From Euryarchaeota archaeon UBA182 (lineage in GTDB: Archaea; Thermoplasmatota; Poseidoniia; Poseidoniales; Thalassarchaeaceae), in NCBI GenBank assembly GCA_002495675.1, contig DAGH01000025.1, positions 14,258 to 78,257 of the forward strand: a stretch of DNA of 64,000 nucleotides. The letters are read 5' to 3'. Shown here in pieces: positions 10,897-56,813 of the stretch; the first letter of the stretch is position 1; each line of letters begins with the position of its first letter. The notes under the pieces were generated by a model. It did no database searches, was not told the DNA's origin, and was given only the letters and a program-made list of their open reading frames with translations. The position numbers and the translations under genes were made by a program.

Positions 10897-10956
10897 GGGA
10901 CATCTGACCATCATCTTCAACAGCCTAGCCACCACCCGATGGGATGAGGTCCCCTC

Positions 10957-15541: not shown

Positions 15542-15581
15542 TCATCTACGATATCGAAGCCCATAGCATCGATGAGATAAA

Positions 15582-24406: not shown

Positions 24407-26137
24407 CTCCTCGCTGTTTCTCGAAGCAAAAATGATGATCCCTATCAGGCCAACTATCAGAAGTGCAGATATCATGCCTAGGATGCTTCCACCCTCACTG
24501 TCTTCGTCATCGCCCTGCCCGCTACCATCCGAGGTTCCTTCTGTGGAGGAGTTCCCCCCATCCGCTTGGCAGGTTCCATCATCTATGGTCGCAGAGGCAT
24601 CGAAGTTAGGGGCATTTTCATCCGTACAACCGGAACGATGTGAGTGATCGAGTGTTGCAAGGAACCCATCTGGCCATTGGTAAGTACTCTCGTTGTCCCA
24701 ATTCTGGATGGTTAAGTTTCCGAATTCAGCATGGGTCGTTGAGAATGACCCTCCCATTGCAGTCTTGCCATTTGAATGGTGCAATGACGTTGCTTCCGGC
24801 CACTTTGCCATTCCAAGTCCAAGGGCCCACTCCCATATTCCGTTATCTGAGATTCCTGCCATCCAGAGATCCATGTTTAGTGGGTCATCTGACTTCAAGA
24901 TTGAGTGTGTGTCGAATGCCAGTTGCAACGAGGCCGTCCCGCCCAAGACAATGGCACCACCAGACATAGAGGCGATCGCATGTGCGTCATCGTTCCCCGC
25001 CCCTGAAACAGACTCTGTCCATTGCCATTTGCCCTCGTTTGAAATCTTGGAGACCATCACATCAGTTGTACCAGTAAGGCCTGTGTTTGTATTGCTGATC
25101 CTGGACGAGTTGTCTGGGTCGATTGAGTAGGTGACGCGTGAGGAGGTTCTGGACAACACATAGGCACCACCTGTTTCATCGGCGTCGATTGAGTAGATCT
25201 CCTCGCTATTCTGACCCCCGATTGAGGCGATCCATTCCCATGTGTTGGATGACGGGTCCCAAGATGCGATCATTCCTTCGGAATAGCCTGGTGAATCATT
25301 GACGGTCTTGTTCGGAACCCCATAAGCTGCCTGCCCCAGAAAGTACCCAGCCACCATGACCTTGCCATCGGAGGTCAACGCCATGCTGTGCACCTCCAAA
25401 CTAGAATCCGCATCGAACAAACTTGCGTGGGAGGCAATTGCCCCCGTGGAATCGAACTCCACTAGGAAGGAGTCAGTCAATCCCCCATCTGCCCAACCCG
25501 GCATTAAGCTGGATCCGCCGTCATAAATCGGATCGCTGGCATAATTTCCAACGACAAAAACCCCTCCACTGGGGGCAGGCTCAAGTGCTACGGCCCAGTC
25601 TGAAGATTGGCCTTGAAAGGAATATGCCCATGTCCAGCTACCGGTCGTCGGATCCAACTTCCCAACGAAGGCCTCTGAGGTGGGGGATGTCGTTAGGGTC
25701 CTTGGAGTCTGGTCCGTGTTGTTCAACTCAAAGTTCCCAAAGACGGAAGTGTTCGACTTGAAGCCACCCGCGACATACACGGAGCCGTCTGTGGCAATGG
25801 TTATCGCTGCCCCCCAGTCGTCATCCGGGCCACCTGCAGTCGAAAGCCAAGCCCAATCGCCATCTGCCCATTTTCCGACAAAGATGTCCGTCGTGTTGCC
25901 AGTTTCATGTTGATTCGCCTCGAGCGATAATTCCCCAGCATGCAGGTCAAACCTGTAGGCTCCAACCACGTAGATATCACCGGACTCTGTATCAATGTGG
26001 ACATCATTGACTGAGTCGCCCCACCATCCAGATATAGCCTCGGCATCGGCCCAGATCGGGGGTTGTGCAGTAGTGTATCCTGCCAGGTGAGATACAAGCA
26101 GGATCGTGGTCAGAGTACCTGCCAGTCGCCACCTCAT
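24392..26137 (-). CDS. secreted beta-propeller (SBBP-repeat-like) surface protein with C-terminal TM anchor
   Basis: Signal peptide. Repeated DGxxYVxG blocks (DGSVYVAGGF, GDIYVVGAY, GGVFVVGNY, DGKVMVAGYF). C-terminal GMISALLIVGLIGIIIFASR anchor then acidic tail. Confidence 0.6.
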   Translation of the reverse strand: MRWRLAGTLTTILLVSHLAGYTTAQPPIWADAEAISGWWGDSVNDVHIDTESGDIYVVGAYRFDLHAGELSLEANQHETGNTTDIFVGKWADGDWAWLSTAGGPDDDWGAAITIATDGSVYVAGGFKSNTSVFGNFELNNTDQTPRTLTTSPTSEAFVGKLDPTTGSWTWAYSFQGQSSDWAVALEPAPSGGVFVVGNYASDPIYDGGSSLMPGWADGGLTDSFLVEFDSTGAIASHASLFDADSSLEVHSMALTSDGKVMVAGYFLGQAAYGVPNKTVNDSPGYSEGMIASWDPSSNTWEWIASIGGQNSEEIYSIDADETGGAYVLSRTSSRVTYSIDPDNSSRISNTNTGLTGTTDVMVSKISNEGKWQWTESVSGAGNDDAHAIASMSGGAIVLGGTASLQLAFDTHSILKSDDPLNMDLWMAGISDNGIWEWALGLGMAKWPEATSLHHSNGKTAMGGSFSTTHAEFGNLTIQNWDNESTYQWPDGFLATLDHSHRSGCTDENAPNFDASATIDDGTCQADGGNSSTEGTSDGSGQGDDEDSEGGSILGMISALLIVGLIGIIIFASRNSEESSDE

Positions 26138-26198
26138 GGGCCCGGGGCCGCAGGTTCAACAAATAATCCGTCCGGCCTGAGGGGGATATTTGCCGCCT

Positions 26199-36888: not shown

Positions 36889-37383
36889 TTACAGGCTCTC
36901 TGCTAAGAATTCGATGTATTCCTGGGGAGAAAGGAAATGATCCTCTTCGTATTCGTGTGGCCTTACTATCATCAACCAGCCATCACCATAAGCCTCGGAA
37001 TTGACTAGGTCTGGTGAGTCCTCTACCTCGCCGTTCAACTCAAGGATTCCACAAGGAAAAGGGCTGTCCAGTAGTACGACGTCGTCAGCGGTCCTCAGAG
37101 TGACAAGTATGTCCTCTGCAGCCAACTCGCCCTCAAGGCCGGATTTCTCCTGTGATTTTTCCTCGCCCTCATCAAAGCCGTCAAGCGCACTCAAGTTGGG
37201 GAGTGTGACTCGGATGAATTCGCCCCACACAGCCGCGACATATTCGCTAACACCCACCTTGACACTGGTTTGTACGTTGCCGTCCTCATCTTCATCCCTG
37301 TCAATCACCTGGAGCCACAAATGCTCCTTTGTGTACCTTCTGTCTTCTGCAACGCTGAATTCAATGTCACCGTCTTCCGCCAT
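36889..37383 (-). CDS. glycine cleavage H-protein-like lipoyl-domain protein with lipoyl-Lys replaced by Arg
   Basis: From ATG 37383: YTKEHLWLQV, VGVSEYVAAVWGEF, DLVNSEAYGDGWLMIVRP match GcvH. The position aligned to the ESVKA lipoyl lysine reads VTLRTAD (Arg). Carries acidic insertions (DRDEDEDGN, DGFDEGEEKSQEKSG). Confidence 0.55.
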   Translation of the reverse strand: MAEDGDIEFSVAEDRRYTKEHLWLQVIDRDEDEDGNVQTSVKVGVSEYVAAVWGEFIRVTLPNLSALDGFDEGEEKSQEKSGLEGELAAEDILVTLRTADDVVLLDSPFPCGILELNGEVEDSPDLVNSEAYGDGWLMIVRPHEYEEDHFLSPQEYIEFLAESL

Positions 37384-37503
37384 GTTGATCGATCCGCGCG
37401 CGGGACCCACCTGACTTGAATCATTCGATTGACGGACGGTCCAATACAATCCAAATTTCGATGGGTTAACAACCATCCACCGCTTCATGGGTACGGGACT
37501 GCA

Positions 37504-38688
37504 ATGGATTTCAGAGAAACTGACGAGCAATCGATGATCAGACAACTCGTAAGAGACTTCGCCGAGGAGGTACTCGCCCCCACTGCATCCCAAAGAGACA
37601 AAGAGCAGCGACCACCTATCGAAGAATGGGAAAAATTCTGCGAAATGGGACTCCAGTCTATGACTATCCCAGAGGAATACGGGGGCAACCCGCTAGACGA
37701 CATCTCTGAGGCGATCGTCGTTGAAGAGCTCGCCAGAGTTGATGCATCTTTCTCAGTGATGTTTTGCGTGCATGTCGGGTTGTGTTCCGCGACTATCGCC
37801 ATACACGGCAATGAACAACAGAAATCGAAGTACCTCCCTATGCTCGCAGGGGGGGAGATTGGTGCCTACTCCCTTTCAGAGGCTGGCTCTGGAACCGACG
37901 CCGCAGCAATGAGCTGCAGTGCAAAACTAAGTGAAGACGGAACCCACTACATCTTGAACGGAGAGAAGATGTGGGTCTCAAACGGCAGTACTGCTGGAAT
38001 CTATGTGCTTTTCGCCAAAGACGTAGATCACCCTGAATTCGGTGTCCGCAGCCATGGTGGAACCACGGCGTTCATCATTGAGAAGGACTTTCCAGGGTTT
38101 TCTGTCGGCAAGAAAGAGGACAAACTAGGAATCAGGTCCTCCGATACTTGCTCATTGGTTCTCAAGGATTGCATGGTGCCGATAGAGAACGTACTAAGGG
38201 CAGCCGGAGAAGGTTTTCCAATAGCGATGAACGCACTTGATAACTCAAGGATTGGGATTGCCGCTCAAGCACTGGGAATAGCTCAGGGGGCATACGAAAC
38301 CGCGCTGAACTACGCCCAACAAAGAACCACCTTTGGCAAACCGATATCACGTCACCAATCCGTTGGGAATTATCTCGCTGACATGGCCACAAAAATTTCC
38401 GCGGCCAGGCTTGTTGTCTACCAGGCGTCATGGGCGAAGGGGAACCACTACCACTCCGGTGGTCCAAGACACACAACAGAAGCCTCGATGGCGAAACTTC
38501 TCGCCGGCGACACGGCGATGTGGGTTGCGGAGAGGGCGGTGCAGGTTCTGGGCGGCTACGGGTACACAACTGATTTCCCTGCTGAGCGCTTCTTCAGGGA
38601 TGCAAAAATTACCCAGATTTACGAAGGTACCCAAGAAGTTCAAAGGATCGTGATCAACAGAGCAATATCCTCAAAGAGATCTGAGTGA
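37504..38688 (+). CDS. acyl-CoA dehydrogenase
   Basis: ACAD fold motifs: GAYSLSEAGSGTDAAAM, LNGEKMWVSNG, and C-terminal QVLGGYGYTTDFPAERFFRDAKITQIYEGTQEVQR (catalytic Glu in YEGT). Start trimmed to ATG 37504. Confidence 0.85.
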   Translation: MDFRETDEQSMIRQLVRDFAEEVLAPTASQRDKEQRPPIEEWEKFCEMGLQSMTIPEEYGGNPLDDISEAIVVEELARVDASFSVMFCVHVGLCSATIAIHGNEQQKSKYLPMLAGGEIGAYSLSEAGSGTDAAAMSCSAKLSEDGTHYILNGEKMWVSNGSTAGIYVLFAKDVDHPEFGVRSHGGTTAFIIEKDFPGFSVGKKEDKLGIRSSDTCSLVLKDCMVPIENVLRAAGEGFPIAMNALDNSRIGIAAQALGIAQGAYETALNYAQQRTTFGKPISRHQSVGNYLADMATKISAARLVVYQASWAKGNHYHSGGPRHTTEASMAKLLAGDTAMWVAERAVQVLGGYGYTTDFPAERFFRDAKITQIYEGTQEVQRIVINRAISSKRSE

Positions 38689-38690: not shown

Positions 38691-39803
38691 TCACAATGTA
38701 TCCACATTGAACACACCTGCAACAGGCAGCAACTTGTTTTCGAAATCGAAAATTGCCTGATTTTCCCATACAGAGCCATTATTCGATTCCGGACCGCTCC
38801 AAGATATCATGTCAGCACCCCAATAACAGAACCCTACTCCTCTCTCCACGCTCAAGATTTCGTCCTTCAAAGCTGTCATGAAGTCCAATTGCCCCTGAGG
38901 TGATGCAGGATATAGAGAGGCGATTATCTGGTCCTCTGATCCTATGATGTTATTCGTCCAATCGTTCCAGTCAAGCGTGAATGGATAAGCGGTCTCTGCG
39001 ATCATCACATCCTTGTCGTTTTGTTGAGCCAATTCCGTCAGCGTGTCACCGACTCTCCCAATAGACTTGCCGTGCCACAGCGGGTAGAAGGAAATGCCTG
39101 CGATGTCATAGTCCAGCGAACTCAATTCACCGTAGAAGTCACTTGAGGACTCCAGCCCAGCGTAGTGGATTATGATTCTAGCGTGCCCGGAGTTTTCCCT
39201 GATGGCTCTTGATCCAGCATCGAGAAGTTCAAGAAATTGCGTTTTATTTTGGTTTATTTCCCCATGGGGGAACAAAAAACCGTTGTTGATCTCGTTCCCA
39301 ATCTGGACGAAATCAGGATTCAAATCGGAGACGATGTCGCTTGTATACTGGTAGAACTCATCTTTCACTTCAGAGTAGTTCAGACCGTCCCAAGCGCGGG
39401 GCTGATCTTGCGCTCCGGGGTCAGCCCAGGTGTCTGAGTAGTGGGGACAGAGCCAGAGTTTCAGCCCCAAAGATTTTATTTTTTCAGAGAAATCTGCCAC
39501 CTCTTGCAAGGATGAGCCGCTATGGCTTGGGTCATGCCAAATCCTGAGCCTCACTGTGTTGACTCCGGCATCCTTCAATGATTGAATGAAATCCACCTGA
39601 TCCCCGTTTGAGTCGTAAAAAGTGTGGTTCAAGCTTGAGATCAGGGGGTAATATGAGATGTCAACGGCAGAAATTATTTCGGGCATAAACTCGGAATTAT
39701 GTGATTCAATTTGCAAACCCTGGGTATCTTGGCTGAGGCACCCTGACAACATACACGCTACGATCAAGATGGAGAGCGGTGCCCGCAAAGTCATAGGAAT
39801 CAA
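38691..39803 (-). CDS. glycoside hydrolase family 53 endo-beta-1,4-galactanase lipoprotein
   Basis: Lipobox MLSGCLS. GH53 pattern ISAVDISYY...LKDAGVNTVRLRIWHDP, acid/base VQIGNEINNG, nucleophile IAETAYPFT, ISFYPLWHG. Confidence 0.75.
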   Translation of the reverse strand: MIPMTLRAPLSILIVACMLSGCLSQDTQGLQIESHNSEFMPEIISAVDISYYPLISSLNHTFYDSNGDQVDFIQSLKDAGVNTVRLRIWHDPSHSGSSLQEVADFSEKIKSLGLKLWLCPHYSDTWADPGAQDQPRAWDGLNYSEVKDEFYQYTSDIVSDLNPDFVQIGNEINNGFLFPHGEINQNKTQFLELLDAGSRAIRENSGHARIIIHYAGLESSSDFYGELSSLDYDIAGISFYPLWHGKSIGRVGDTLTELAQQNDKDVMIAETAYPFTLDWNDWTNNIIGSEDQIIASLYPASPQGQLDFMTALKDEILSVERGVGFCYWGADMISWSGPESNNGSVWENQAIFDFENKLLPVAGVFNVDTL

Positions 39804-39834: not shown

Positions 39835-41391
39835 CTAGTTCACCCATGAGTATCTCCTCTCGCCCTCTAGGTGGCCTTCAGCCCCAATCGAGACGAGGGC
39901 AAACTCCGCTGACGGGCTGATTACAGATGAGTTCCTCGAGCCCCTATGAAGGGCCTCATAGACAGATTTGTCGATTGATTGGCGTTCGTCTATCCTAGCG
40001 AAAAGCGAGAATCTTGAGACAATATGTTTCCAATCCGGCTGGATGATCCCCTCGAACACCTTGGCCTTCGCACCAGAGCCATATCCACAGAGGCCAACAC
40101 GAGTGCCATTCATGTCTTGATTGTCCTCTAAGTCGGATTCCAATGCTGACATCAATGCTAGAAAAATGGATCCAGTGTATTGATTGCCGACCTTAGACGA
40201 AGCGCGTTGTGTCTTTTCGATCCTCTGCTCGACGAATTGCTTGAATTGATCCGTCTTGGAAATCTTCCTTCGATAAACATCGTTAGCAGCCTCGAACTCG
40301 CTTTCTCCTGATTCGCCCTCGGGGTAATCGGGCCTAATTGGTTCTGGGCCTATTTCAGCCTCGATCTCTGACCATGTCGGGAGATGCCGCCTGTCGTGGC
40401 GGAAAACATCCGGGAACATTCGCTTGGCCTGGAAAGCATATGGCAGGTGGACTATGATCCTTGACCATTGCTCTGTGAGGATATCATCATCATTCGGATC
40501 ATACCTTCCATGGGCTATAGCCTTCGACCTGAAGTTGATGAAAGCCTGCTTAACCGACTCCGAATAGCACCTATTCGAGAAGGCACCGTCGAACACTGGG
40601 GTGTCCTTGTGGACCTTCAGGGTCTCGGATTCGAACAAGGTATGGTCCCGCTTGTCTGTCTTGTCGATGATCCTCATGATTCTCTCGGATAGATTTGTCT
40701 TGAATTTCTCCCCAGCATCAGAGGCCAGCTCCAGCACTGTCTCGACTATTGACTTCCTCGTAATTTCCCTGCGAGGCTTGAAGAAATCATGAACGGGCAT
40801 CGTGGATACACCCCATATGTCTGGGATCTCCAGCAACCTTGGGTTGTGCCTGATGAGGATGGCCCCGCCACCCGCACCTTGAGTGTACTCGCCCGATGAG
40901 CCCAGGTCGTACTTTGCATTGTCGGCGAAGACCACGACCCCGATCCTATCCTGCTCCACGCCTCCCCTAGCAACCCAGTCCAGAGTGTTGTGCATCGCAT
41001 CCACGGCCCCGATGCAAGCAAAAGTCATGTCCACGACATCACAATTTCTGAAACATTCCGGACCGTACTTTTTCGAGTAGCGTTGTTCAAGCATGTCCAT
41101 GATGTAAGTGGCAGTGGGCTTCGACCCATCTAAGGCTGATTCAGTGCCAAGATATATCCTACCAATTTTTTTTGGTTCGAGCTTGTTCCTGTCAATTATT
41201 CTAGCAACCGCATTAGCGCCCATGGTCGCGGTGTCCTCATGGACATCTGGGATAGCCATCGCGGATAAGCCAAGACCTCGATTCAGCTTGCCGTAGTCCG
41301 CCCCTCTGAATTCTGCAAAGTCCTTGATGTCGAAATAAAGCCTAGGTATGTGGATCGCGATGTCGTCTATACCCACAGAAACTGTCATCAT
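39835..41391 (-). CDS. hydroxymethylglutaryl-CoA synthase, long form
   Basis: VGIDDIAIHIPRLYF...DYGKLNRGLG...EDTATMGANAV, catalytic Cys context MTFACIGAVDAM, and C-terminal helical extension. 518 aa, considerably longer than the ~350-aa archaeal HMGCS. Confidence 0.8.
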   Translation of the reverse strand: MMTVSVGIDDIAIHIPRLYFDIKDFAEFRGADYGKLNRGLGLSAMAIPDVHEDTATMGANAVARIIDRNKLEPKKIGRIYLGTESALDGSKPTATYIMDMLEQRYSKKYGPECFRNCDVVDMTFACIGAVDAMHNTLDWVARGGVEQDRIGVVVFADNAKYDLGSSGEYTQGAGGGAILIRHNPRLLEIPDIWGVSTMPVHDFFKPRREITRKSIVETVLELASDAGEKFKTNLSERIMRIIDKTDKRDHTLFESETLKVHKDTPVFDGAFSNRCYSESVKQAFINFRSKAIAHGRYDPNDDDILTEQWSRIIVHLPYAFQAKRMFPDVFRHDRRHLPTWSEIEAEIGPEPIRPDYPEGESGESEFEAANDVYRRKISKTDQFKQFVEQRIEKTQRASSKVGNQYTGSIFLALMSALESDLEDNQDMNGTRVGLCGYGSGAKAKVFEGIIQPDWKHIVSRFSLFARIDERQSIDKSVYEALHRGSRNSSVISPSAEFALVSIGAEGHLEGERRYSWVN

Positions 41392-46363: not shown

Positions 46364-47281
46364 ATGAGTACCACCATAATCGCAGAACAGCAAGAAGAAG
46401 GGATACATCCAACGTTGCCCCAGTTGGTGCACGCGGCCTCTATAATTGGCGGCGAATGCACCATAATAATTCCCGGTGGTGGCGGAGAGTCTGAAGCCTC
46501 TGAGATAGTAGGAGTTGACAGGGTACTGAAGTTCAACGGAAGCTGCTTCTCTGTTTTCGACTCCCAGTCTTGGTCGAGCGCACTGAAGGGATCCGTGGGT
46601 GGGACCGTCCTTCTGGCATCAACCCCCCGGGGCCGCGAGCTCGGGGCTAGTCTTGCTGCTGACATCGGCATCTCGGTCGTTCAGGACATAACATCGATTT
46701 CGGAAGGTATCAACGTAGAGAGGCCGGTCTTTTCAGGCAAGGCGATAGAGAAAGTCACCATCTCTAGTCCTGCCGTAATTACCATCCGCCCCAACTCGCT
46801 GGATCCAGCGGGGAATGGAGCCTCAGCCCCGGTATCGACGATCGATTCGGGTGAAGATCTCAGAATGGCGGTAGAAGAGGCGATAACCAAGGCTAGCGAG
46901 AAGATCGATGTCTCAGAGGCGGACATCATAATTTCCGGCGGGAGAGGTTTGGGAGATATCTCGAACTTCGAAAAGTTGGAGGAAGTCGCTTCGACTCTCG
47001 GTGCTGCAGTGGGGGCTAGTAGGGCCGTCGTGGATGAGTGGGGCCTCCCCCACAGTATGCAGGTTGGCCAGACTGGAAAGACCGTAACACCGTCCCTCTA
47101 CATCGCGGTGGGGATATCTGGTGCAATACAGCATTTGGCTGGAATGAGATCCAGCAGTTACATTGTCGCCATAAACAAGGACCCCGAAGCTCCAATTTTC
47201 ACCGTTGCCGACTACGGAATCGTAGCCTCCTGGGAAGATGCCCTCCCGGTTCTGCACGACTCCATCAAGGCGCTTCCGTGA
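46364..47281 (+). CDS. etfA: electron transfer flavoprotein alpha subunit
   Basis: IISGGRGLG...ASRAVVDEWGLPHSMQVGQTGKTVTPSLYIAVGISGAIQHLAGM...VAINKDPEAPIF is the conserved EtfA FAD-binding C-terminal domain. Confidence 0.9.
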   Translation: MSTTIIAEQQEEGIHPTLPQLVHAASIIGGECTIIIPGGGGESEASEIVGVDRVLKFNGSCFSVFDSQSWSSALKGSVGGTVLLASTPRGRELGASLAADIGISVVQDITSISEGINVERPVFSGKAIEKVTISSPAVITIRPNSLDPAGNGASAPVSTIDSGEDLRMAVEEAITKASEKIDVSEADIIISGGRGLGDISNFEKLEEVASTLGAAVGASRAVVDEWGLPHSMQVGQTGKTVTPSLYIAVGISGAIQHLAGMRSSSYIVAINKDPEAPIFTVADYGIVASWEDALPVLHDSIKALP

Positions 47282-47879
47282 TTAAACGGGCAATAGAAAC
47301 AAGGTGGTAGACTCCTCCAACGAGCCTCTGCTCGAAATCCACTTTCCATGACTCTCCCCTGAGTTTCCATACCCCTCTTGAATAGGAAATTTCCCTGGAT
47401 ATTGAAAGGCCATATCCTGTGGCCTTAGATACAGCCTCAATGGCCATCCAAGTCTCCAGATTCGTGGGATATGGGGTTTGTTTCTTTACATCTTCTGTTG
47501 CAATCTGATCCAAGGTTCCCATATCGACAAGTCTGGACTTGGGCTCCATATCCACCCCTATTGGATATGGTCCGGTCGATTTGACTGCCACGGCACCATG
47601 ATCTGTGTGGGATATGCTCCAATGGTTCAACAGAGTTCCATTTCTGGTGTGGCAACCGCCCTTTCCAGGCTCAATGTTGGCAACATCGCCTTGGATGGCA
47701 CCTAGAAGGTTCCCTAGGGCGATCCTCCCCGAAATATGGTGTTTTTTCCTATCTCCCCTCATCCTACGGAACCTATCTTCTTCCACTAGGATCGGCAAAG
47801 TTCCTTGGCTTGAAAGGTCGTCATGGTCGACGTATTCTGCCAGAAACCCGTCAATTGACATATTCTGATTTTGAATCAT
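47265..47879 (-). CDS. 4'-phosphopantetheinyl transferase (Sfp/EntD superfamily)
   Basis: GRIALGNLLG, WSISHTDHGAVAV, PIGVDMEP (GxDxE) and WMAIEAVSKATG (W..KEA-like). ATGA overlap with the upstream PKS stop. Confidence 0.75.
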   Translation of the reverse strand: MIQNQNMSIDGFLAEYVDHDDLSSQGTLPILVEEDRFRRMRGDRKKHHISGRIALGNLLGAIQGDVANIEPGKGGCHTRNGTLLNHWSISHTDHGAVAVKSTGPYPIGVDMEPKSRLVDMGTLDQIATEDVKKQTPYPTNLETWMAIEAVSKATGYGLSISREISYSRGVWKLRGESWKVDFEQRLVGGVYHLVSIARLITEAP

Positions 47880-50800
47880 GTCAATTCTCCGGAATACTCT
47901 GCCAGGCCGGGACGTTGATCATCGCTCAAGTCTCTGAGTTTTTTCATTTTGAGCCCGTCGATCCTCATAATCGGGGAGCCATCCAGTCTGATTACGGACT
48001 CATGCACGAAGGTACCGTTGGGATCGGATCCCTTCCTAACCGAAGTTACGGTCAAGGAACCCTCGGGAATTTCACCTGCGATTAGAATACGCTTGGCTCC
48101 GACAGGGAGGGATTCCGCCGAATCCAGATCCATCGATGTGAGCCCTGCTGCCTGGAAGCAGGACTCGATCAACATGGGATAGGACGTCAAATCGGGGATG
48201 ATTCCTTTTCCTCGAATATTGAATAGTCGAGGATCCGGAAGATCCTGTATGGAGTTCACCCTGGCCTCGATGCCAGTGCCTGAAGTGGTTTCGATGGTCG
48301 CGACGACTCCCTTTAGTGGTTGGAACCTAGGGCCATGGAACATCAAGCCATAGATGTCCACAGCACCGAGAATCCGTGATCCGTCCTCGTCGGTGGTTAT
48401 CAGATCGTCAATTTTCTCCTGCGGATTCTTTGAGGCAAGAGCGATTATCGCCGTGTGATGCACAATGGGTTCTGCCATACCACCGGGGGCTTCCGAGACT
48501 ATCCTGCAACTGTATGCCTCGGCCCAGTCTCCCTCGATTGCCTCCACTATGCAACGAATCTCTTTGTGGGACTTTGTCAACTTAACTGGCAGGCCAAATT
48601 CAACGTCTTCGAATGAGGATATTCTGTTTCCACTGGTGATGCAAGATTGAACTGTCTCCGCCATCATCTCCAATGCCATGACCCCGGGTAGGTACGGTAC
48701 GCCTGAAATCGAATGATCCATGAGGTAACTGTGTGATTCAAGATCTAATCTGACTGCAGAAACAGCGCCCTTCCCGTGTTCACAGTATGTGATCACATCA
48801 ATCATTGGATGCCTTGAGGCTGTGCCGTACTCACTGGAGAAACCCGGAGGGAGCACGACGCCTGCCATCCTAACGGACTTGTTCTGGTCGAGAATTCCGA
48901 GATTTCCTGAGATCAGGACTGATTCACCTCCTTGGGTGAGAACCTCGTCCGTAAACATCCTAGCACCAGTCTCCAGGGGTATCATGTCCACCTCGGCCAT
49001 TTGGAAAACTGTCTCCAAGGAACCCCTAGTTGCCATCCCTGCGCCTGACCATGGAGCCCACGCAATCGAGATCGACGTGAGGCCACCCTTGTTGATTCTC
49101 GAGTGCTCAGCGTCCAGTATTCTATTTGCGGCACAGTATCCGAGTTGGGTGGCGTTCCCAAGCCTGCCGGAGACCGATGTGAAAGAGCAGGCAAATCTCA
49201 GGTCTTGATTTGCTTCTTTGAGGGAATTGTAAATTTCCCTCCACCCTGACACCTTTACGTCGAGGACCTGATTGACTGTTGCCTCAGATTTTGACTCAAA
49301 GGGAGTCGAGTCCTCGATCCCCGCTCCATGAATTACTCCTGTGATTCTGCCGTGTTTTGAAATTACTTCATCGACAACGGCTCTGACCCTCTCGCTGGAC
49401 GTCACATCTACCTGGAAATACTCTGCCGTGGCTCCTTTGGAGTTGAGTCTGGCGAGGTTTTTGTGTATGTCCACGCCACGCAATACTTTCTGCCAAGCGT
49501 CATTCCACTCTCTCAGGGTGACTTTGCCATCGTCCCTGCCGGACTCCATAGCCAACTTTAGCTTCAGTTTCTCATTCTCGAGATCCTGATCGGACATGGC
49601 AGACATTTTTTCCAACTTGGGGTCGAGTGTTGTTCGGCCGAGTAGTATGAACGTGGGAGGGCCCGATGGGCTCCTACCAGCGATATCCACCATGCATTCC
49701 GAGGTCACACCCGATGCTCCACCACTGACCAGCCATATCTCGTCTCCGGGAAATTCCCCGGCCATCTCCTGTGCCTCTGCTCTCTTGAGGGTCAGCCTAT
49801 GCCTAGCACCGCCGTCGCCTATGCCGACTTCTATCGGGCCATCTTTCCTTGAAATCTCTTTCATTATCGAGGTTATGAGGGTATCCTCATCGTCCATGAG
49901 CCCTGGATGTATGTCAATGGCGAGGACGTCCAATTCCGGCCTCTCGCAGCCGAAGCTCATGACTGCCCCGTGGATTCCAGCGACGGATGAATTGTAATCA
50001 CCCCCCTCAATACCATGGGAGCCGTCCATCGAGGTCACCGTTGCTATCCTTCGAACGGCCCCCCTTGGAAGGCTGTCTACTTTCTTCAACAGGTTGTAGG
50101 TCTCAATCGTCCAGTGATTTGGAGACGGATCGGTGTAGAGAGATCCCTCAGCCCCGAGGGAGGACATTTGTACAATGCAGGCGTCTCGAATTTCCTCGTC
50201 TGATAGGCTATCCTCCTCGATGATCCGCGCTTCGCCCCCCATTCTGGTTATTCGTGCAACCAACGAATCTGAGAGTCCAAGTGGGTCTCTTGTGACCAAT
50301 ACCAATCGTGGGAGCTGGTGGATTTCGATATCTCCCATCGCCTCTGTGACAACCACATGTCTGAATATCGGTGCGGGTGGATTTTCCTCTTCCTGGGGTT
50401 CTCTTGATTCTCCACTCTTTGGCGGTGAGTCTGTCGATCCTGCGACATAGTTTGCTACGTGCCCCAGCGTCGGGTAATCCCTGATCTGGAAGTCCTCATC
50501 CAATTCTAAGTTGAATTGTGCCCTGATGTCAGACATTATCTCCGCCTGTTTGATCGAGTCTATTCCGAGCTCGCCCTCCATGTCTGCGTCGGTCTCAAGG
50601 AATTCAACGGGGTATCCCGTGTGTTGTGCTACGATCGGGAGTATCGATGAGAGGATTTCGTCATTAGGGGCTCCATACTCGACCTGGGGTTGCATCTCCA
50701 TCTTCTTGCCCTCCGACTCTCCCGCTGATTGGTCGAACTCTTCCAACGGCCTCCTGCTTTCGTTCGAATCGGTGAATGAGCCGATGTATCTGATCACGTG

Positions 50801-53800
50801 GCCGATCGTTGGGTGGTCCCTGAGTTGGAAACTCTCATCGAGCGGGAGCGAGTATCGATCACGGATCTCAGACATTATCTCCGCCTGTTTAATCGAGTCA
50901 ATTCCGAGTTCGCCCTCCATGTCCGCGTCGAACTCGATGAATTCCTCTGGGTAGCCAGTCGATTCAGAGACTATCTCAAGCACCCCCCTACTGACGTCAT
51001 CAGTGGAAATTAATGGGGGTGAGGGAGTTGGCCTAGTCGGTTTCTCAGGGCTAATTGCCCCATTCTTTTCCACTGGAATTGATCCTGTTGAGTCGTTGGG
51101 GAGGGTTTGAGCGTGATCCTTCAAAGGGGCAGTTGACTTCATCCTCGGCGGATCATACAACTCTCCGACGACCCCCCCGACCAGATCATCGTCAGCATCG
51201 ACGTAGGCAACGAGCTTCCGGTGCAATACCCTCAGGCTAACATCTTTACCCCTGCTGGCCCTCAAAGCCCATTGAGTTATCCTGTCGGGGTCGAATCTCT
51301 CTGTGTCTGATACCGCGATCTTCCTCAGGAATGTCAGGGCAATCTGGCTACCGAAACCTGCACCGTGCCTGAGGGCGAGATCGATATCCTTCGGCCCTCC
51401 CTTCGATATATTGAGGGTGCCGAGGTCTTCGTCTTCAACCTCGTAGTTCGCGACCGGCGGGAAGATTCCCGCAGCAAGGCTCCTGATTACCACAGCGTCC
51501 TCCAATCCCACGCCCATTGGATGGCCAGTGTACCCCTTCGCGTTCGTAATGAGGATCTCCTGGGCCTTGTTCCCGAAGACGTGGCGGAGAGCGCTGACTT
51601 CTGCTGATGCAGAACCGCCCCGAGGCGGGGTATAGGGCTCATGTGACATGAATGTCATTCTATCGGCCATCTCACTTCTGCCGATCTTCCATTTGCGTTC
51701 CATGCGACCAACGAATGACTCCATGACCGAGGCTGCATGGTCCGTGTCGAGCCTCGTTGGGTGGAATGCGCTGTTGGCGATCTCCGCGCCGAGGACCTCG
51801 ACATATGGGGTGACTCCCCGCTCTCTGGCGTCTCCCTGCCTCTCGAGTACGAAGCCCGCGCCCCCCATTCCTAGAAGCATCCCGTGTCTACGTGCATCGA
51901 AAGGCAGGGCGACCTGCGTGACATCGTCGCCCATCGCATGGGCTCCTGCCCCAGAGAAACCAGCACCTACCCAGGGCATCAGGGTGTCGGATGTCGAGTC
52001 GTCACCACTGACGATAATTACTCTATCACATCTTCCTCTTGCCATCCAGTCCTCTGCTATTGCAAATGCGGCCGGGGTAGAGGCGCAGGCGTTGTTGATC
52101 GCGAGATTTGGCCCTCTGGCCCCTATCCATGAAGCAAATTGACTATGCCCCATTGATAGGACCTGGAGCAGGTACTTCCTGTCGAATTGATCATATTCTG
52201 GCGATTTCCTGCGTAGTACGTGTTCTATCGCCTTCTCCAACCCTGGGAATACGGAGGCGAAGATCACGCCTGTTCTGTCCTTTTCATGCTCGGGAAGGTT
52301 CCACCCCCGGATGACACGCAGGCCACTGCTGTTGGACTGTTCTACTGGCAATAATGGTAATCCTGCGTCCTTGAGGGCCTCCAAGCCAGAGGCAAATGCC
52401 AATGAGGTCGCAATGTCGAAAGCCTCGACCAGTTTCTTGTCGATCCCATATTGCTCCGTAAGGTCAAACCTTCCACCGATTCCTGCCAATTGTGGAACTT
52501 TCTCGAAAGCATCAGCAGGCACCAGCCTGGATGTTCCATCCTCACTCTTAACCAATCGAACGATTTTTTGGTCTACGAGTTTCTGTTTCATATCATTGGA
52601 AATCTCAGAGATGAGGTTCCTGCCCTCCAAGATGGCCTCCCAAACACCGTCATCGAAAACTTCGTCCATGCCAGGAACCCCGAGTGAAATCCCGCTTACG
52701 ACAGGAGGCTCTGGGTTCGCATCGGGGGTATTGGAGCGATTTTCAGGTTCGATTGAGATTGCCTGTACTATGTCTGCGACAGTAGAGAATGAGCCGGGGC
52801 CTGATATGGAAACTAGGTCTGGATGGCCTACCTCATCGAGAACGTACCGTATTCTTGATTCGTCGACTCCTATCTCGTCAAGGCTGACGTTTCCAGTCAA
52901 GACGGAGCTTGGATAACCTGTTATTTTGGCCAATATGTCTGAGACAATCCTCTCTGATTGGATCGACTCGGGCATGGGGCGAACAAGGCGAGTATTTCCA
53001 TGGGGGCTCGCAGGGGAGGGGTTCGACGGCAATGGTCTTGATCTCGTTCTGAGTGCCTCGAGATTCTCAGAAACAGAGGCGAGATCGGTGTCGTTTGGGG
53101 GTTCCATAAACTCAGGTGAGAGCAGCCCTTTGCCCCATTCATCGATAATCGGCATCTTCCCATTGATCGCCAGAAACGCGATTGAATCGAGGAAAGTGGC
53201 AATGCCGCCGACTTTGGGGTGATTTGTTGATGATGTCTTCGCGTCGCCCCCAAGAATGGCAGCAACGGTTGAAGACAGAGCTCGTTTAGGGCCCACTTCG
53301 AGGAAGATACGGGCTCCTGCACCATACATCGTCTCGACTTGATCGATCCAGTTGACGGGCGATGACATCTGTGGAGCCAACTTTTCCAGTATCGATTCCC
53401 TCGGGTTGTCAGAATGCATGGGATAGAATGAGCCATCGACGTTCGCAGTGACCGGGATTGTCGGTAGGGAGATGTCGATTGATTCTAGGAATCGACGAAG
53501 AGGGGCATTGGCCGGCGAAACAATGTCTGTGTGGAATGCATGGCTCGTCTGAAGTGGGATCACAGTGGCTCCCAGATCCGATAAAATGTGAATCGCGGAT
53601 TGTACTGCATCGGTCTCGCCGGCAATGACCGTCGAGACAGGACTGTTCCTGTTCGCCGCGATGACATAACCATCTACCGACCGAAGCGCCTCCTCGACCT
53701 TACTGGCTGGGGCTCCAACCGCGGCCATGAGGCCCTTGTCAGGTACCTCCACGGAGCCCATCTCAGTTCCACGGGCTGCCGCAGCGCTCATTGCATCTCT

Positions 53801-56002
53801 GAAACTGAGGATGCCCGAGACCATCAGTGCTGCGTATTCGCCAAGGCTGTGTCCTGCGACCATATCAGGGAAGATTTCATGATCAGCCAAGAGACGGTCA
53901 ATGGCTAGGTCCGCAGTTAGCATGGCCGGTTGTGTGAACTCTGTTTGGGTTAGCCTGGATTGAGCCTCTTCCATATCTGCTCCAATGAGATTGTTGTTCA
54001 GTACAATTCCAGACAAAGGCTCTCCAATGATCGGAGTCATGATGCCGTCGGCCTCCCTCCAGGTGGATGCCACAACATGGTACCTCTGTGCCAGATCAAG
54101 AGTCATGCCGAGGTATTGGCTGCCTTGGCCGGGGTACATGTGTGCTAATTTGGCGTTGGGGTCCAGAGGTGCATCTTCGATGTGTATCTGTTGACTTTTT
54201 AGGAATGAGTGCCTCCCCGAATCGGTAATTCCTTCCATAGCCAAGGCTATTCTCTTCTCTAATTGGGGCCAACTGGTCGCAACTATGGAGAGCCTGATAC
54301 CCTCGGGTTTGAAACCCAAGGAGGACAGGGGGAGGGCCCTTGAGAGTCTCTTTCCAGTGGGGTGGTCATCGAAGGTCGGGGTTCCGTCGAACAGTTCTTC
54401 GGAGATTTCACCTAGTCTCTCGAGGAGCGCTTCCTCGGAGTTCCCGTTGACGAGTAATACTCCGCCTTCTAATGCCTTGAGGTGCGCCCAACTGAGTGAT
54501 GTCGGTCGATGGGCATCGCCTCCCTCTCTATGGTGGTGTCTTCTCGACCTCCACTTTGCTGAGAGTTTCGAGTGTTTTTCGGGATGGTATTGCTCGAGGG
54601 CGACGTGGAAATTCGTACCCCCGAATCCAAACGCGCTCACCCCTGCTCTGCGTGGATTGTCAGTTGGCTGGGGCCAATCCCCTGCCACAGTGGGGACATA
54701 GAATGGTACCTCCGACCATGGGACGGTTTCATTCGGCTGTTCAAATCCTGCCGAGGGCGGTATCGTTCGATGATGAAGGGACAACGCTACTTTGAGTATG
54801 CCCGCCAAACCTGCAGCAGCCTTCAGGTGCCCAATCTGTGACTTAATTGACCCCACGGCAACGGTCCCTGGCATGTTGGACTGGCCATACACGGAGGATA
54901 GTGACGCCAACTCGGTGGCATCACCGACGGATGTGCTGGTTCCATGGGCCTCTATCAGTTCCACGCTGGATACAGGATACCCTGCTTGACTGTATGCATT
55001 TGAGATTGCTAGGACCTGTCCGCCTTGACTTGGTGCGGTAATCCCCTTTCCACGGCCATCGCTGCTGGCGCCTATCCCTCTGATCACGGAGTATACCTTG
55101 TCGCCTGCCTTGATAGCATCATTCAGTCTCTTCAAGACCAACGCACCTGCGCCCTCCCCCATAACGAAGCCATCGGCTCTCCGGTCAAATGGCACCGACC
55201 TTGTCGCTGATAATGCCCCAATCGCGCTGAATTTCGCAAAAGTAGCAGGGTCCATTGTTCGATCTGCGGCTCCTGCCACCATGACGTCTACTTGGCCACT
55301 GTGTAGCAGGTGACAGGCATCCATGACGGCTGCCATCGCCGAGGCGCAGGCGGCGTCAGTGGTGAAATTAGGGCCCCTTAGGTCTAGCATGTTCGCTACC
55401 CTCCCAGCCACAACGTTGGCTAGCTCGCCGGGCATGGTGTCCTCGTCTACCCTTGGTGCCCCATCAAGCAATGAAGTCTTGAACCTAGAAAAGGCGTCAT
55501 CTGATATTCCGGCTTCCTTTGCGTGCCTTTGGTACCTGTCGATCAGCACCCTCTCTGTTGACCGTGTTCGGTTCTCGCCCCCCAGCGCATTTGCGAAGAC
55601 GACTCCAGTCTTCTCTCTAGGTAAATTCGAAGTAGCGCCATCACCGAGGTATCCAGCATCCTCCAACGCAGCGGCGGACACACTCACGGCCCATTGTTGA
55701 CAAAGGTCGATCTGCGGCAGGGATCCAGGGGGTATCCTCCATCTCTTCCAGTCAAACTCGTATTCGTCAACCCAAGCTCCAATCTTGCTGTAGGTCTTGC
55801 CCTCGGAGATGTTCTTTGGTCCACCTGCCTCCCAGTGATCTCCTGACCTCCAACGATCTTTTGGGAGATTTCGTATTGATACTTCGCCCGAGATCACATT
55901 CTTCCAGAAGGTAGAGACGTCTGGCGCGTCTGGCAGGATTGCTCCGAGCCCGACAATCGCAATCGGCTCGAAAGTTCCAATTTCATCTTTGGAATTGGCC
56001 AT
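47876..56002 (-). CDS. type I polyketide / PUFA-synthase-like secondary-lipid synthase: KS - malonyl-AT - (degenerate ACP-like) - FabF-like KS - ACP - ACP - KR - PKS-type DH
   Basis: Uninterrupted 2708-aa ORF with six motif sets. KS1: DAACASAMAAV (Cys), EAHGTSTSVGD, GSIKSQIGH. AT: YPGQGSQYLGM, VAGHSLGEYAAL, QTSHAFHT. KS2: AINNACAST, NSAFHPTRLD, KGYTGHPMGVGLEDAV. Two ACPs with ELGIDSIKQAEIMS. KR: WLVSGGASGVTSEC Rossmann and YCAANRILD. DH: HSYLMDHSISGVPYLPG. Confidence 0.9.
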   Translation of the reverse strand: MANSKDEIGTFEPIAIVGLGAILPDAPDVSTFWKNVISGEVSIRNLPKDRWRSGDHWEAGGPKNISEGKTYSKIGAWVDEYEFDWKRWRIPPGSLPQIDLCQQWAVSVSAAALEDAGYLGDGATSNLPREKTGVVFANALGGENRTRSTERVLIDRYQRHAKEAGISDDAFSRFKTSLLDGAPRVDEDTMPGELANVVAGRVANMLDLRGPNFTTDAACASAMAAVMDACHLLHSGQVDVMVAGAADRTMDPATFAKFSAIGALSATRSVPFDRRADGFVMGEGAGALVLKRLNDAIKAGDKVYSVIRGIGASSDGRGKGITAPSQGGQVLAISNAYSQAGYPVSSVELIEAHGTSTSVGDATELASLSSVYGQSNMPGTVAVGSIKSQIGHLKAAAGLAGILKVALSLHHRTIPPSAGFEQPNETVPWSEVPFYVPTVAGDWPQPTDNPRRAGVSAFGFGGTNFHVALEQYHPEKHSKLSAKWRSRRHHHREGGDAHRPTSLSWAHLKALEGGVLLVNGNSEEALLERLGEISEELFDGTPTFDDHPTGKRLSRALPLSSLGFKPEGIRLSIVATSWPQLEKRIALAMEGITDSGRHSFLKSQQIHIEDAPLDPNAKLAHMYPGQGSQYLGMTLDLAQRYHVVASTWREADGIMTPIIGEPLSGIVLNNNLIGADMEEAQSRLTQTEFTQPAMLTADLAIDRLLADHEIFPDMVAGHSLGEYAALMVSGILSFRDAMSAAAARGTEMGSVEVPDKGLMAAVGAPASKVEEALRSVDGYVIAANRNSPVSTVIAGETDAVQSAIHILSDLGATVIPLQTSHAFHTDIVSPANAPLRRFLESIDISLPTIPVTANVDGSFYPMHSDNPRESILEKLAPQMSSPVNWIDQVETMYGAGARIFLEVGPKRALSSTVAAILGGDAKTSSTNHPKVGGIATFLDSIAFLAINGKMPIIDEWGKGLLSPEFMEPPNDTDLASVSENLEALRTRSRPLPSNPSPASPHGNTRLVRPMPESIQSERIVSDILAKITGYPSSVLTGNVSLDEIGVDESRIRYVLDEVGHPDLVSISGPGSFSTVADIVQAISIEPENRSNTPDANPEPPVVSGISLGVPGMDEVFDDGVWEAILEGRNLISEISNDMKQKLVDQKIVRLVKSEDGTSRLVPADAFEKVPQLAGIGGRFDLTEQYGIDKKLVEAFDIATSLAFASGLEALKDAGLPLLPVEQSNSSGLRVIRGWNLPEHEKDRTGVIFASVFPGLEKAIEHVLRRKSPEYDQFDRKYLLQVLSMGHSQFASWIGARGPNLAINNACASTPAAFAIAEDWMARGRCDRVIIVSGDDSTSDTLMPWVGAGFSGAGAHAMGDDVTQVALPFDARRHGMLLGMGGAGFVLERQGDARERGVTPYVEVLGAEIANSAFHPTRLDTDHAASVMESFVGRMERKWKIGRSEMADRMTFMSHEPYTPPRGGSASAEVSALRHVFGNKAQEILITNAKGYTGHPMGVGLEDAVVIRSLAAGIFPPVANYEVEDEDLGTLNISKGGPKDIDLALRHGAGFGSQIALTFLRKIAVSDTERFDPDRITQWALRASRGKDVSLRVLHRKLVAYVDADDDLVGGVVGELYDPPRMKSTAPLKDHAQTLPNDSTGSIPVEKNGAISPEKPTRPTPSPPLISTDDVSRGVLEIVSESTGYPEEFIEFDADMEGELGIDSIKQAEIMSEIRDRYSLPLDESFQLRDHPTIGHVIRYIGSFTDSNESRRPLEEFDQSAGESEGKKMEMQPQVEYGAPNDEILSSILPIVAQHTGYPVEFLETDADMEGELGIDSIKQAEIMSDIRAQFNLELDEDFQIRDYPTLGHVANYVAGSTDSPPKSGESREPQEEENPPAPIFRHVVVTEAMGDIEIHQLPRLVLVTRDPLGLSDSLVARITRMGGEARIIEEDSLSDEEIRDACIVQMSSLGAEGSLYTDPSPNHWTIETYNLLKKVDSLPRGAVRRIATVTSMDGSHGIEGGDYNSSVAGIHGAVMSFGCERPELDVLAIDIHPGLMDDEDTLITSIMKEISRKDGPIEVGIGDGGARHRLTLKRAEAQEMAGEFPGDEIWLVSGGASGVTSECMVDIAGRSPSGPPTFILLGRTTLDPKLEKMSAMSDQDLENEKLKLKLAMESGRDDGKVTLREWNDAWQKVLRGVDIHKNLARLNSKGATAEYFQVDVTSSERVRAVVDEVISKHGRITGVIHGAGIEDSTPFESKSEATVNQVLDVKVSGWREIYNSLKEANQDLRFACSFTSVSGRLGNATQLGYCAANRILDAEHSRINKGGLTSISIAWAPWSGAGMATRGSLETVFQMAEVDMIPLETGARMFTDEVLTQGGESVLISGNLGILDQNKSVRMAGVVLPPGFSSEYGTASRHPMIDVITYCEHGKGAVSAVRLDLESHSYLMDHSISGVPYLPGVMALEMMAETVQSCITSGNRISSFEDVEFGLPVKLTKSHKEIRCIVEAIEGDWAEAYSCRIVSEAPGGMAEPIVHHTAIIALASKNPQEKIDDLITTDEDGSRILGAVDIYGLMFHGPRFQPLKGVVATIETTSGTGIEARVNSIQDLPDPRLFNIRGKGIIPDLTSYPMLIESCFQAAGLTSMDLDSAESLPVGAKRILIAGEIPEGSLTVTSVRKGSDPNGTFVHESVIRLDGSPIMRIDGLKMKKLRDLSDDQRPGLAEYSGELT
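50438..51010 (-). repeat. intragenic tandem duplication (~345-bp period) encoding the two ACP domains
   Basis: Plus-strand segments near 50523-50600 and 50868-50945 are almost identical (tcagacattatctccgcctgttt[g/a]atcgagtc[t/a]attccgag[c/t]tcgccctccatgtc[t/c]gcgtcg...). They translate to the repeated EGELGIDSIKQAEIMS[ED]IR blocks. Confidence 0.8.
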
Positions 56003-56009
56003 CTGAGTT

Positions 56010-56813
56010 TCACCTGTTCACATCTTCCGGTACCATGGTGGAACTGTATCCCCCGTCCACATGGATTACCTGGGCGGTGACTCCCGACGATAATGGACTG
56101 GCCAGCCATGTCGCTGCTCCTGCGACATCCATTTGGTCGACGTTCCTCCTGAGGGGGGAGTTCCTCTCGACGTGGTCCAAAATTCCCTCGAAGCCTGGGA
56201 TCCCAGATGCAGCCAAGGTTTTGATGGGGCCAGCACTGATGGCATTCACTCTATGTCCATCTGGCCCCAGTCTTGCAGCAATCTCGCGAACCCACGCCTC
56301 TAGGGCAGCCTTTGCTATGCTCATGAGGCCATAACTGGGGACGTGTCTCGTGCTCGCGGCATAGGTCAGTGTAATGGTGGAGGATTCGGGTGCCAGATGG
56401 GGAAGGCCGCTTCTGAGTATGGATTGAAGGCTATGAGCGCTGATTCTCAAAGCGGTATCAATCGGATCGCTGTCCACGAAGAGTAGGTTTCTGTCGAAGG
56501 CCTCCCTAGGAGCGAAGCCAATGGCATGGATCACGATGTTGGCCTTCTGACCCGGGGACTCCGCCTGCCATGATTTGTAGAAATTTGATATTGAGTCTGG
56601 CTTGTTTACATCGATAGGGTGTATCTGAGTGTTCTTTGGCAGAGTTGGGAGAAGCTGTTGAATCCTGCTTCTGAACCTAGGTTGGAACCCCAGCACAAGG
56701 TTGCAGCCTGCGGACGATAGGCTCTTGCAGATAGCATAGGCGATGCTCTCCTCAGAGGCCACACCAAACACCAGTGCTGTTTTACCATCGAGTTTCAGGA
56801 TGGTATCGCCCAT
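56010..56813 (-). CDS. fabI: enoyl-[acyl-carrier-protein] reductase, FabI type (SDR)
   Basis: KTALVFGVASEESIAYAI, IGFAP, catalytic Y-x6-K in SYGLMSIAKAAL, and the FabI signature RVNAISAGPIKTLAASGI. Ends 7 nt upstream of the PKS start. Confidence 0.85.
   Translation of the reverse strand: MGDTILKLDGKTALVFGVASEESIAYAICKSLSSAGCNLVLGFQPRFRSRIQQLLPTLPKNTQIHPIDVNKPDSISNFYKSWQAESPGQKANIVIHAIGFAPREAFDRNLLFVDSDPIDTALRISAHSLQSILRSGLPHLAPESSTITLTYAASTRHVPSYGLMSIAKAALEAWVREIAARLGPDGHRVNAISAGPIKTLAASGIPGFEGILDHVERNSPLRRNVDQMDVAGAATWLASPLSSGVTAQVIHVDGGYSSTMVPEDVNR

Follow-up and report, generated by a model that had tools for sequence, protein, structure and literature searches.

HglE, ArsA and ArsD are iterative pfa-like synthases that build long, largely saturated chains and pass them on without a canonical thioesterase (TE). 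In the scheme of Shulse & Allen 2011 (PMC3098273), HglE (heterocyst glycolipids) and ArsA/ArsD (Azotobacter alkylresorcinols) stand as Types F and P, and another kind, Type R, comprises a pfaA homologue with the domain order ketosynthase (KS), malonyl acyltransferase (MAT), chain-length factor (CLF), three to six acyl carrier proteins (ACPs) and ketoreductase (KR), followed by a phosphopantetheinyl transferase (PPTase) gene. The recorded Type R hosts are Koribacter, Solibacter, Elusimicrobium and Roseiflexus, from the Acidobacteria, Elusimicrobia and Chloroflexi; acetyl-CoA carboxylase (ACC) genes are linked to the synthase in Koribacter, the product is unknown, and no archaea were surveyed (PMC3098273). 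Here, we analyze a 64,000-nucleotide stretch of DNA, which we call the window, from contig DAGH01000025.1 of Euryarchaeota archaeon UBA182, a Poseidoniales (Marine Group II, MGII) archaeon. Our results support the presence, in a true archaeal genome, of an operon encoding a FabI-family enoyl reductase, a giant type I synthase and an Sfp-type PPTase. We propose that this operon is vertically inherited and probably specifies a type I synthase of fatty-acyl chains (‘secondary lipids’) that works iteratively, depends on ACPs, carries out full reduction and belongs to the pfa-like Type R kind.

The three genes lie in the same direction on the minus strand, at the positions given by an original prediction that had been made from the DNA letters alone: a FabI-family enoyl-(ACP) reductase of 267 aa (56010..56813), the 2708-aa synthase (47876..56002) and a 204-aa Sfp-type 4'-phosphopantetheinyl transferase (47265..47879). 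The open reading frames (ORFs) and the junctions, which we read directly, agree with the tight coupling claimed there: the fabI TGA stop and the synthase ATG are separated by 7 nt, and the synthase stop and PPTase start overlap as ATGA. The triad is kept with 7-9 nt spacing in six loci whose flanking genes change, and fabI lies directly upstream of the synthase in six of the six loci examined. At the far end of the operon, the PPTase gene and a convergent gene for the alpha subunit of electron-transfer flavoprotein (ETF; 46364..47281, plus strand) share 17 nt at their 3' ends (window 47265-47281). The archaeal context in which the original prediction placed these genes is upheld for PolD DP1, PheRS-alpha, a Nob1-like PIN domain, aIF2-alpha, PAC2, rpl44e and rps27e, all confirmed in the flanks, which also encode an HMG-CoA synthase.

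The synthase has the architecture KS1-AT-(degenerate ACP-like linker)-KS2-ACP-ACP-KR-DH (AT, acyltransferase; DH, dehydratase), as defined by its ORF and by Pfam and NCBIfam matches. The Pfam domains expected by the original prediction were recovered (ketoacyl-synt twice, Acyl_transf_1, PP-binding twice, KR and PS-DH), and the KS, AT and ACP motifs that it had listed, among them DAACAS and GQGSQ/GHSLG/HAFH, are present. These are not pseudo-domains: in an alignment of 15 diverse homologues, 46-77% identical to the window synthase, the catalytic residues of KS1, AT, KS2, KR and DH are all invariant. KS1 (aa 12-480; 54563..55969, on the minus strand like every feature of the synthase) is of PfaA/PKS type, where PKS denotes polyketide synthase; it is covered by Pfam ketoacyl-synt N/C and KAsynt_C_assoc (aa 12-479), has TIGR02813 PfaA as its best NCBIfam match, and carries DAACAS at 216 within the invariant triad C219/H353/H392. 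The malonyl-type AT (aa 618-918; 53249..54151) matches Acyl_transf_1 (aa 622-909; 7e-35) and TIGR00128 FabD (5.9e-57), with GQGSQ at 625, GHSLG at 717 (S719), R744 and HAFH at 821-824; Q626, S719, R744 and H821-AFH, which together form the malonyl signature, are invariant. The nearest solved structures of the KS1-AT didomain are PKS modules.

Downstream of KS2, the tandem ACPs carry GIDSIK at 1700 and 1813. ACP1 (aa 1674-1740; 50783..50983) was identified by Pfam PP-binding and has its attachment residue, S1703, in LGIDSIKQAEIM; ACP2 (approximately aa 1787-1853; 50444..50644) is the second PP-binding stretch, with attachment at S1816. The KR catalytic subdomain (aa 2088-2340; 48983..49741; Pfam KR, aa 2180-2319, 1e-27) has PKS KR domains as its matches in the PDB, together with a GGASGVT NAD(P)-binding motif and invariant K2250/S2276/Y2289/N2293. 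The C-terminal DH (aa 2398-2692; 47927..48811) is a PKS-type double-hotdog domain by Pfam PKS_DH_N and PS-DH, with the motifs H2430xxxG2434xxxxP2439 and E2613xxxQ2617, in which H2430, P2439, E2613 and Q2617 are invariant. Consistent with the original prediction, the Pfam scan of the synthase reveals no TE or reductase release domain, and none was found in two Pfam-scanned relatives. The protein also lacks the hallmarks of a modular cis-AT assembly line (several collinear modules, a loading module, a terminal TE or reductase), and possesses one AT, one KR and one DH.

Two regions between the AT and the tandem ACPs call for correction or comment. The additional, third ACP that the original prediction had proposed at approximately aa 1022-1075 (52778..52939; ‘LDEIGVDES’) is a degenerate ACP-like linker: relaxing the Pfam threshold to E<=10 brings out no match, homologues conserve neither a Ser nor a Thr for attachment, and only a remnant motif, ‘GYP...G.V.L.E.G’ (‘TGYP...G.VSL.E.G’), is conserved, the attachment residue itself being gone. 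Some bacterial relatives have true ACPs at this position. The second KS, KS2 (aa 1098-1560, with ketoacyl-synt at approximately aa 1098-1517; 51323..52711), exists as predicted and is not an inert domain. Pfam and an alignment to the solved FabF 8qm1 (2.8e-22), in which the Cys and both His residues fall in register, identify a catalytically complete, FabF-like KS, whose residues C1306/H1454/K1489/H1494 are invariant among the 15 homologues; across the wider family, 152 of 153 representatives retain its Cys-His-His triad. We therefore rejected assignment of KS2 as a chain-length factor, since its Cys is retained, and the intact triad argues that it is a real condensing enzyme.

The two smaller genes encode divergent but recognizable partners for this synthase. 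The FabI protein matches Pfam adh_short_C2 at 5.6e-62, and its top 14 NCBIfam matches are all FabI equivalogs. It aligns over its full length with the solved T. thermophilus FabI 1ulu (1.3e-52) and contains Y151/Y161/K168, comprising the Tyr-x6-Lys pair and upstream Tyr of a short-chain dehydrogenase/reductase (SDR) fold; the 1ulu match and Y161/K168 bear out the earlier FabI call, which had cited the Y-x6-K pair. Judged from these matches, the protein is a divergent member of the FabI family, and we propose that it could serve as the trans-acting enoyl reductase (ER) of the synthase. The PPTase is best recognized through its homologues: syntenic homologues in related loci match PF01648, and a profile of four homologous sequences matches solved Sfp-type PPTases (7ed1 at 5e-9, PptT, and Sfp 1qr0 at 2e-5). 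Residues H91, D110, E112, E148 and K152 are invariant in the homologue alignment, and GVDME and WMAIEAVSKA are present, so that the PPTase call originally made from the motifs GVDME and W..EA.SKA stands.

Together, the synthase domains and FabI are predicted to constitute a complete reductive elongation cycle acting on a malonyl-only AT. We infer the steps of this cycle from established fatty-acid synthase (FAS) and PKS enzymology and from fused relatives of the synthase. The Sfp-type PPTase would convert the two tandem ACPs to their holo form, and the malonyl-specific AT would load malonyl-CoA. The PfaA-like KS1 and the FabF-like KS2 would then extend the chain, probably by working as a pair or by dividing the range of chain lengths between them, and the KR, the DH and the separately encoded FabI would finish each reductive cycle. 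Repeated over successive rounds, this would most likely yield a long-chain acyl thioester that is saturated or largely so. Because neither a TE nor a reductase domain is present, release would most economically proceed by acyl transfer, either mediated by the AT with CoA as the acceptor, or through direct use of the acyl-ACP by an acyltransferase or other enzyme encoded elsewhere. Several observations weigh against such a pathway. Neither the window nor the related loci yielded a release partner, whether a thioesterase, a reductase or an acyltransferase. In the DH, Glu (E2613) replaces the Asp that is usual in PKS DHs. None of the curated FabI models of NCBIfam gives the FabI protein a score that reaches the cut-off (best 214.6 bits versus 441), and the substrate of the protein could therefore differ. 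The PPTase on its own has no significant Pfam or NCBIfam match (Pfam ACPS, PF01648: E=0.022, 15.2 bits versus a cut-off of 25), and in the window lineage this divergent protein has Ile in place of the Lys of motif 3 (W..KEA).

Other functions can be envisaged for the same set of domains. Surveys of the antiSMASH type class genes like this synthase as type I PKS (T1PKS) or hglE-KS, and the similarity of KS1-AT to PKS modules, together with the lack of a TE that leaves room for downstream tailoring, would suit a specialized-metabolite PKS that makes a bioactive or signalling polyketide. We regard this as unlikely, since the synthase has a single module, a malonyl-only AT, a full KR/DH/ER complement and tandem ACPs of the type found in synthases of polyunsaturated fatty acids (PUFAs), while no conserved tailoring genes lie nearby and the operon is conserved across the order with shifting neighbours, as is typical of primary or secondary lipid synthases. 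A PUFA synthase of the EPA/DHA type, an option left open by the original prediction, would fit the marine habitat and the LGIDSIK motif of the ACPs, and TIGR02813 PfaA is indeed the best curated family for the synthase. However, that match reaches 796.5 bits against a cut-off of 1010.1 and is split into three separate stretches, the ER is a FabI, and the scanned ORFs of the 64-kb window and of five related loci include no FabA-type DH/isomerase domain and no pfaB, pfaC (KS-CLF and two FabA-type DHs) or pfaD. Without PfaB, PfaC, PfaD or a FabA-type dehydratase/isomerase we see no route to cis double bonds, and a PUFA product is highly improbable. It is also very unlikely that the operon supplies short-chain acyl-ACP (octanoyl-ACP) for lipoylation, in the manner of mitochondrial type II FAS. 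A gene for a GcvH-domain protein does lie about 10 kb away (36889-37593), and the trait looks conserved and housekeeping-like, but no LipB or LipA gene is nearby, the GcvH neighbour is absent from the other loci examined, and two KS domains with tandem ACPs are typical of long-chain pfa-like synthases.

The reading of the operon as a vertically inherited archaeal fatty-acyl synthase must also be weighed against accidents of assembly and of evolution. The window derives from a short-read metagenome assembly (a k119 contig) and all three genes have bacterial-type homologues, as might be seen if bacterial DNA had been joined to an archaeal flank as a chimera or contaminant. We give this next to no credence. 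The exact synthase protein occurs on seven contigs, the longest of 183 kb; a 97%-identical synthase is found in an independent metagenome-assembled genome (MAG), ‘Euryarchaeota archaeon UBA558’; and homologous triads lie on contigs of 0.59, 2.04 and 3.0 Mb amid archaeal genes, with PCNA, Nop56, fibrillarin, TFIIS and CDP-archaeol synthase among their neighbours; aIF2a and PolD are also among the archaeal genes that neighbour the triad. When GTDB species genomes were scanned with the synthase, the only matches were the near-identical ones in UBA558 and one homologue at 50%. The comparison of codon and tetranucleotide usage suggested by the original prediction shows the operon to be indistinguishable from the rest of the window (codon-preference r=0.97 and tetranucleotide r=0.93 versus the flanks), which, along with the contigs, the UBA558 copy and the megabase-scale triads, excludes a recent insertion as well as a chimera. 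Among named relatives, those closest to the synthase, with which it shares 45-52% identity along its whole length, come from MAGs of Candidatus Thalassarchaeaceae, Poseidoniaceae, Poseidoniales and ‘Marine Group II euryarchaeote’; PheRS-alpha has the same pattern of relatives, with 62% identity to Thalassarchaeaceae, and the divergence of the synthase tracks that of PheRS. The PPTase gene, the most divergent of the three and the lowest in GC (0.48), with its Lys-to-Ile change in motif 3, might raise the suspicion that the operon survives from an old transfer only as a non-functional relic in decay. The intact 8.1-kb ORF and invariant catalytic residues of the synthase make a relic extremely improbable, as do the dN/dS values against UBA558 (0.13 for the synthase over 2023 codons, 0.09 for FabI and 0.23 for the PPTase), which indicate that all three genes are maintained by purifying selection.

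The fatty-acyl synthase that we propose belongs to a wider family that reaches well beyond MGII. A full-library search with the KS2 region recovered 510 clusters at E<1e-30, almost all of them proteins of 2-4 kaa with the core KS1-AT-KS2-ACPn-KR-DH. Family members have from one to six ACPs. Named members come from Bradymonadaceae, Polyangiaceae, Elusimicrobiota, ‘Thermoplasmatota archaeon’, Heimdallarchaeota and ‘Asgard group archaeon’, and an Elusimicrobiota protein is among the closest relatives of KS2. Many relatives have in addition an N-terminal NMO/PfaD-type (FMN) ER, a C-terminal PPTase, or both, as part of the same chain; since these activities are so often fused, they appear integral to the ancestral unit, and the MGII FabI is, by this comparison, a likely non-orthologous stand-in for the fused ER. 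In a Thermoplasmatota MAG (L011:19165-22188), a synthase homologue with a fused PPTase is followed by genes for BioY, biotin carboxylase and biotin carboxyl carrier protein, which links the family to malonyl-CoA supply. The Heimdallarchaeota contig that carries a homologue has archaeal neighbours (Pcc1, an S13_N/S15 ribosomal protein and DHH). In two Asgard/Heimdall loci (L009:11094-12947 and L010:8927-10792), a protein of approximately 620 aa is encoded directly after the synthase; the two proteins share 48% identity, have no Pfam match, are unrelated to neighbours of the MGII operon, and are candidate partners of their synthases.

The carrier proteins of this family differ in an unexpected residue. 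The window synthase has the canonical Ser at both ACP attachment sites (S1703 and S1816) and thereby falls in a Ser-type minority clade. Among its 120 closest MGII homologues, 83 have Thr in every ACP (GIDTVK), 36 have Ser, and in the remaining one a GIDTVK site is paired with GIDELK. The wider family was sampled through representatives, in which Thr occupies the position in 336 of 353 ACP domains and is the sole residue there in 120 of 129 proteins (survey sequences P0027-P0120 and P0121-P0272; loci L005:10001-18790, L007:2703-10655 and L008:10001-19837). In alignments, this Thr falls on the Ser that is phosphopantetheinylated in solved ACPs, and Thr-type synthases retain an adjacent or fused PPTase. 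Because AcpS reportedly fails to modify the S36T mutant of E. coli ACP, a conserved Thr at the attachment site needs explaining. We found no mention of Thr at this site in the description of Type R and related synthases (PMC3098273). This pattern may indicate Thr-linked phosphopantetheinylation. Although it lies outside our main finding, the Thr-type carrier may be the most novel lead to come from this analysis.

The textbook view, as reportedly given by Lombard et al. 2012 and Dibrova et al. 2014, is that archaea lack ACP-dependent FAS and PKS machinery. The presence of the synthase family in Poseidoniales, other Thermoplasmatota and Asgard MAGs means that such an absence is not general. In the library that we searched, no published description of the MGII operon was found, only automated tallies of biosynthetic gene clusters (BGCs). 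In BGC surveys of marine archaeal genomes, T1PKS is the second-largest class, a retracted paper listed T1PKS/HglE-KS clusters in Poseidoniaceae, and a survey of T1PKS across biomes does not mention archaea (PMC10308959). The main MGII genome papers cover only fatty-acid degradation and a missing glycerol-1-phosphate (G1P) dehydrogenase; in 270 MAGs, G1P dehydrogenase is absent and glycerol-3-phosphate (G3P) dehydrogenase present (PMC6461757). In public records the proteins bear automatic names such as ‘SDR family NAD(P)-dependent oxidoreductase’, ‘acyltransferase domain-containing protein’ and ‘Pks15/1’. Thus, the novelty put forward in the original prediction survives insofar as we found no description of the operon, but was otherwise overstated: the synthase is common in Poseidoniales, occurs in other archaeal MAGs, is annotated automatically, has been tallied as T1PKS or hglE-KS, and has an architecture that was described in bacteria as Type R in 2011.

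MGII, the most abundant archaea of the surface ocean, have so far escaped both cultivation and characterization of their membrane lipids. The operon provides them with a complete and conserved candidate source of fatty-acyl chains, in which a synthase, its carriers, an activating enzyme and an enoyl reductase are encoded within approximately 9.5 kb, a size that suits heterologous expression and makes fatty-acid synthesis in MGII directly testable; conversely, the orphan Type R family gains a very abundant environmental host. A further idea, which we put forward tentatively and consider doubtful, is that Poseidoniales make fatty acids by a Type-R-like megasynthase and use them in G3P-based ester or mixed ester/ether membrane lipids, and that the family as a whole carries 4'-phosphopantetheine on Thr instead of Ser. 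If this were true, related synthases in other Thermoplasmatota and in Heimdall/Asgard MAGs could act likewise, and a carrier-protein-dependent fatty-acid pathway would be native and ancient in several archaeal lineages, with bearing on the ‘lipid divide’ and on the archaea-to-eukaryote membrane transition. Thr-linked 4'-phosphopantetheine would, in addition, represent a previously unrecognized variant of a universal post-translational modification.

The surroundings of the operon vary among lineages. Acyl-CoA dehydrogenase (ACAD) and ETF genes adjoin it in the window, as the original prediction observed. We tried including these genes in the system and rejected them, because their adjacency is specific to the window lineage and is lost at other loci; it is probably coincidental, and the genes probably have nothing to do with the operon. 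Most Poseidoniales loci have, ahead of the operon, a conserved block encoding a protein of approximately 265 aa, a protein of approximately 175 aa with a faint match to TATA-binding protein (TBP), and a TatD-family hydrolase (L005:5676-9078, L006:6846-9121, L007:3-1827 and L008:6579-8898). A search of the MGII loci for a conserved tailoring or release partner near the operon found only this TatD gene and the two small genes to be shared, and they are absent from the window, where a PKD-domain protein and purF are encoded upstream of fabI instead.

Other genes of the window are of separate interest. An S-adenosylmethionine (SAM) synthetase of the bacterial/eukaryotic MetK type (Pfam S-AdoMet_synt N/M/C), and not of the archaeal type, adjoins an S-adenosylhomocysteine hydrolase (window 7846-9090, plus strand, and 6325-7944, minus strand), and is probably another inter-domain acquisition in the host archaeon. 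A haem-precursor cluster on the minus strand (1239-5379), encoding ALAD, a fused porphobilinogen deaminase/uroporphyrinogen-III synthase and glutamyl-tRNA reductase, occupies the stretch of the window with the lowest GC (0.46-0.49 versus approximately 0.54). On the plus strand, 9106-17615 encodes two LVIVD-repeat proteins, two SCO1/SenC proteins and one YHYH-domain protein, which are likely copper- or cell-surface-related. A glycoside hydrolase family 53 (GH53) endo-beta-1,4-galactanase adjoins a long (518 aa) HMG-CoA synthase (38691-39803 and 39835-41391, both minus strand), and is consistent with the reported use of algal polysaccharides by MGII. Two large adjacent ORFs of 581 and 870 aa (24392-28811, minus strand) have no Pfam match.

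Type R is the closest described kind to the MGII operon, which we provisionally assign to it by domain order and by the accompanying PPTase. Both have a KS, a MAT, a second KS-like domain (the ‘CLF’ of the 2011 description), tandem ACPs and a KR, with a PPTase gene following, and in both Type R and the family described here some members have linked ACC genes (Koribacter in the one, a Thermoplasmatota archaeon in the other). The MGII operon differs from Type R in its archaeal host and in the FabI gene coupled upstream. Its synthase has two ACPs where Type R has three to six, a KS with an intact Cys-His-His triad in the ‘CLF’ position, and a C-terminal PKS-type DH that the 2011 description does not list. 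The same KS1-AT-KS2-ACPn-KR-DH core is found, at 35-47% identity in KS2, in all-in-one proteins with the order ER(NMO)-KS-AT-KS2-ACPn-KR-DH-PPTase, represented by Bradymonadaceae MBA2665313.1 and Asgard MEA2070463.1. In these proteins the ER, which has an FMN/TIM-barrel fold, and the PPTase are fused to the synthase, whereas MGII encode both separately and use an SDR-type FabI; the all-in-one proteins nearly all have Thr at the ACP attachment site, where the window synthase has Ser.

Beyond Type R, the window operon shares with PfaA of the pfaABCDE system a PfaA-like KS-AT, tandem LGIDSIK ACPs, a KR, a C-terminal PS-DH and a dedicated Sfp-type PPTase, but its synthase has an extra KS between the AT and the ACPs. 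HglE and ArsA/ArsD resemble the proposed MGII synthase in their working mode, which is iterative and generates long, largely saturated acyl chains without a canonical TE; they act with a separate KS-CLF protein, a type III PKS or reductase partners, none of which is encoded near the MGII operon. The MGII FabI has the same fold and the same Tyr/Tyr/Lys residues as FabI of type II FAS, and the MGII PPTase the same H/D/E/E/K set as other Sfp-type PPTases, yet this pair is divergent, falls below threshold when each protein is considered alone, and appears dedicated to a type I megasynthase. What is new here, and what distinguishes the MGII operon from these known systems, is thus its archaeal host and its discrete FabI in the place where its relatives fuse an FMN-type ER.

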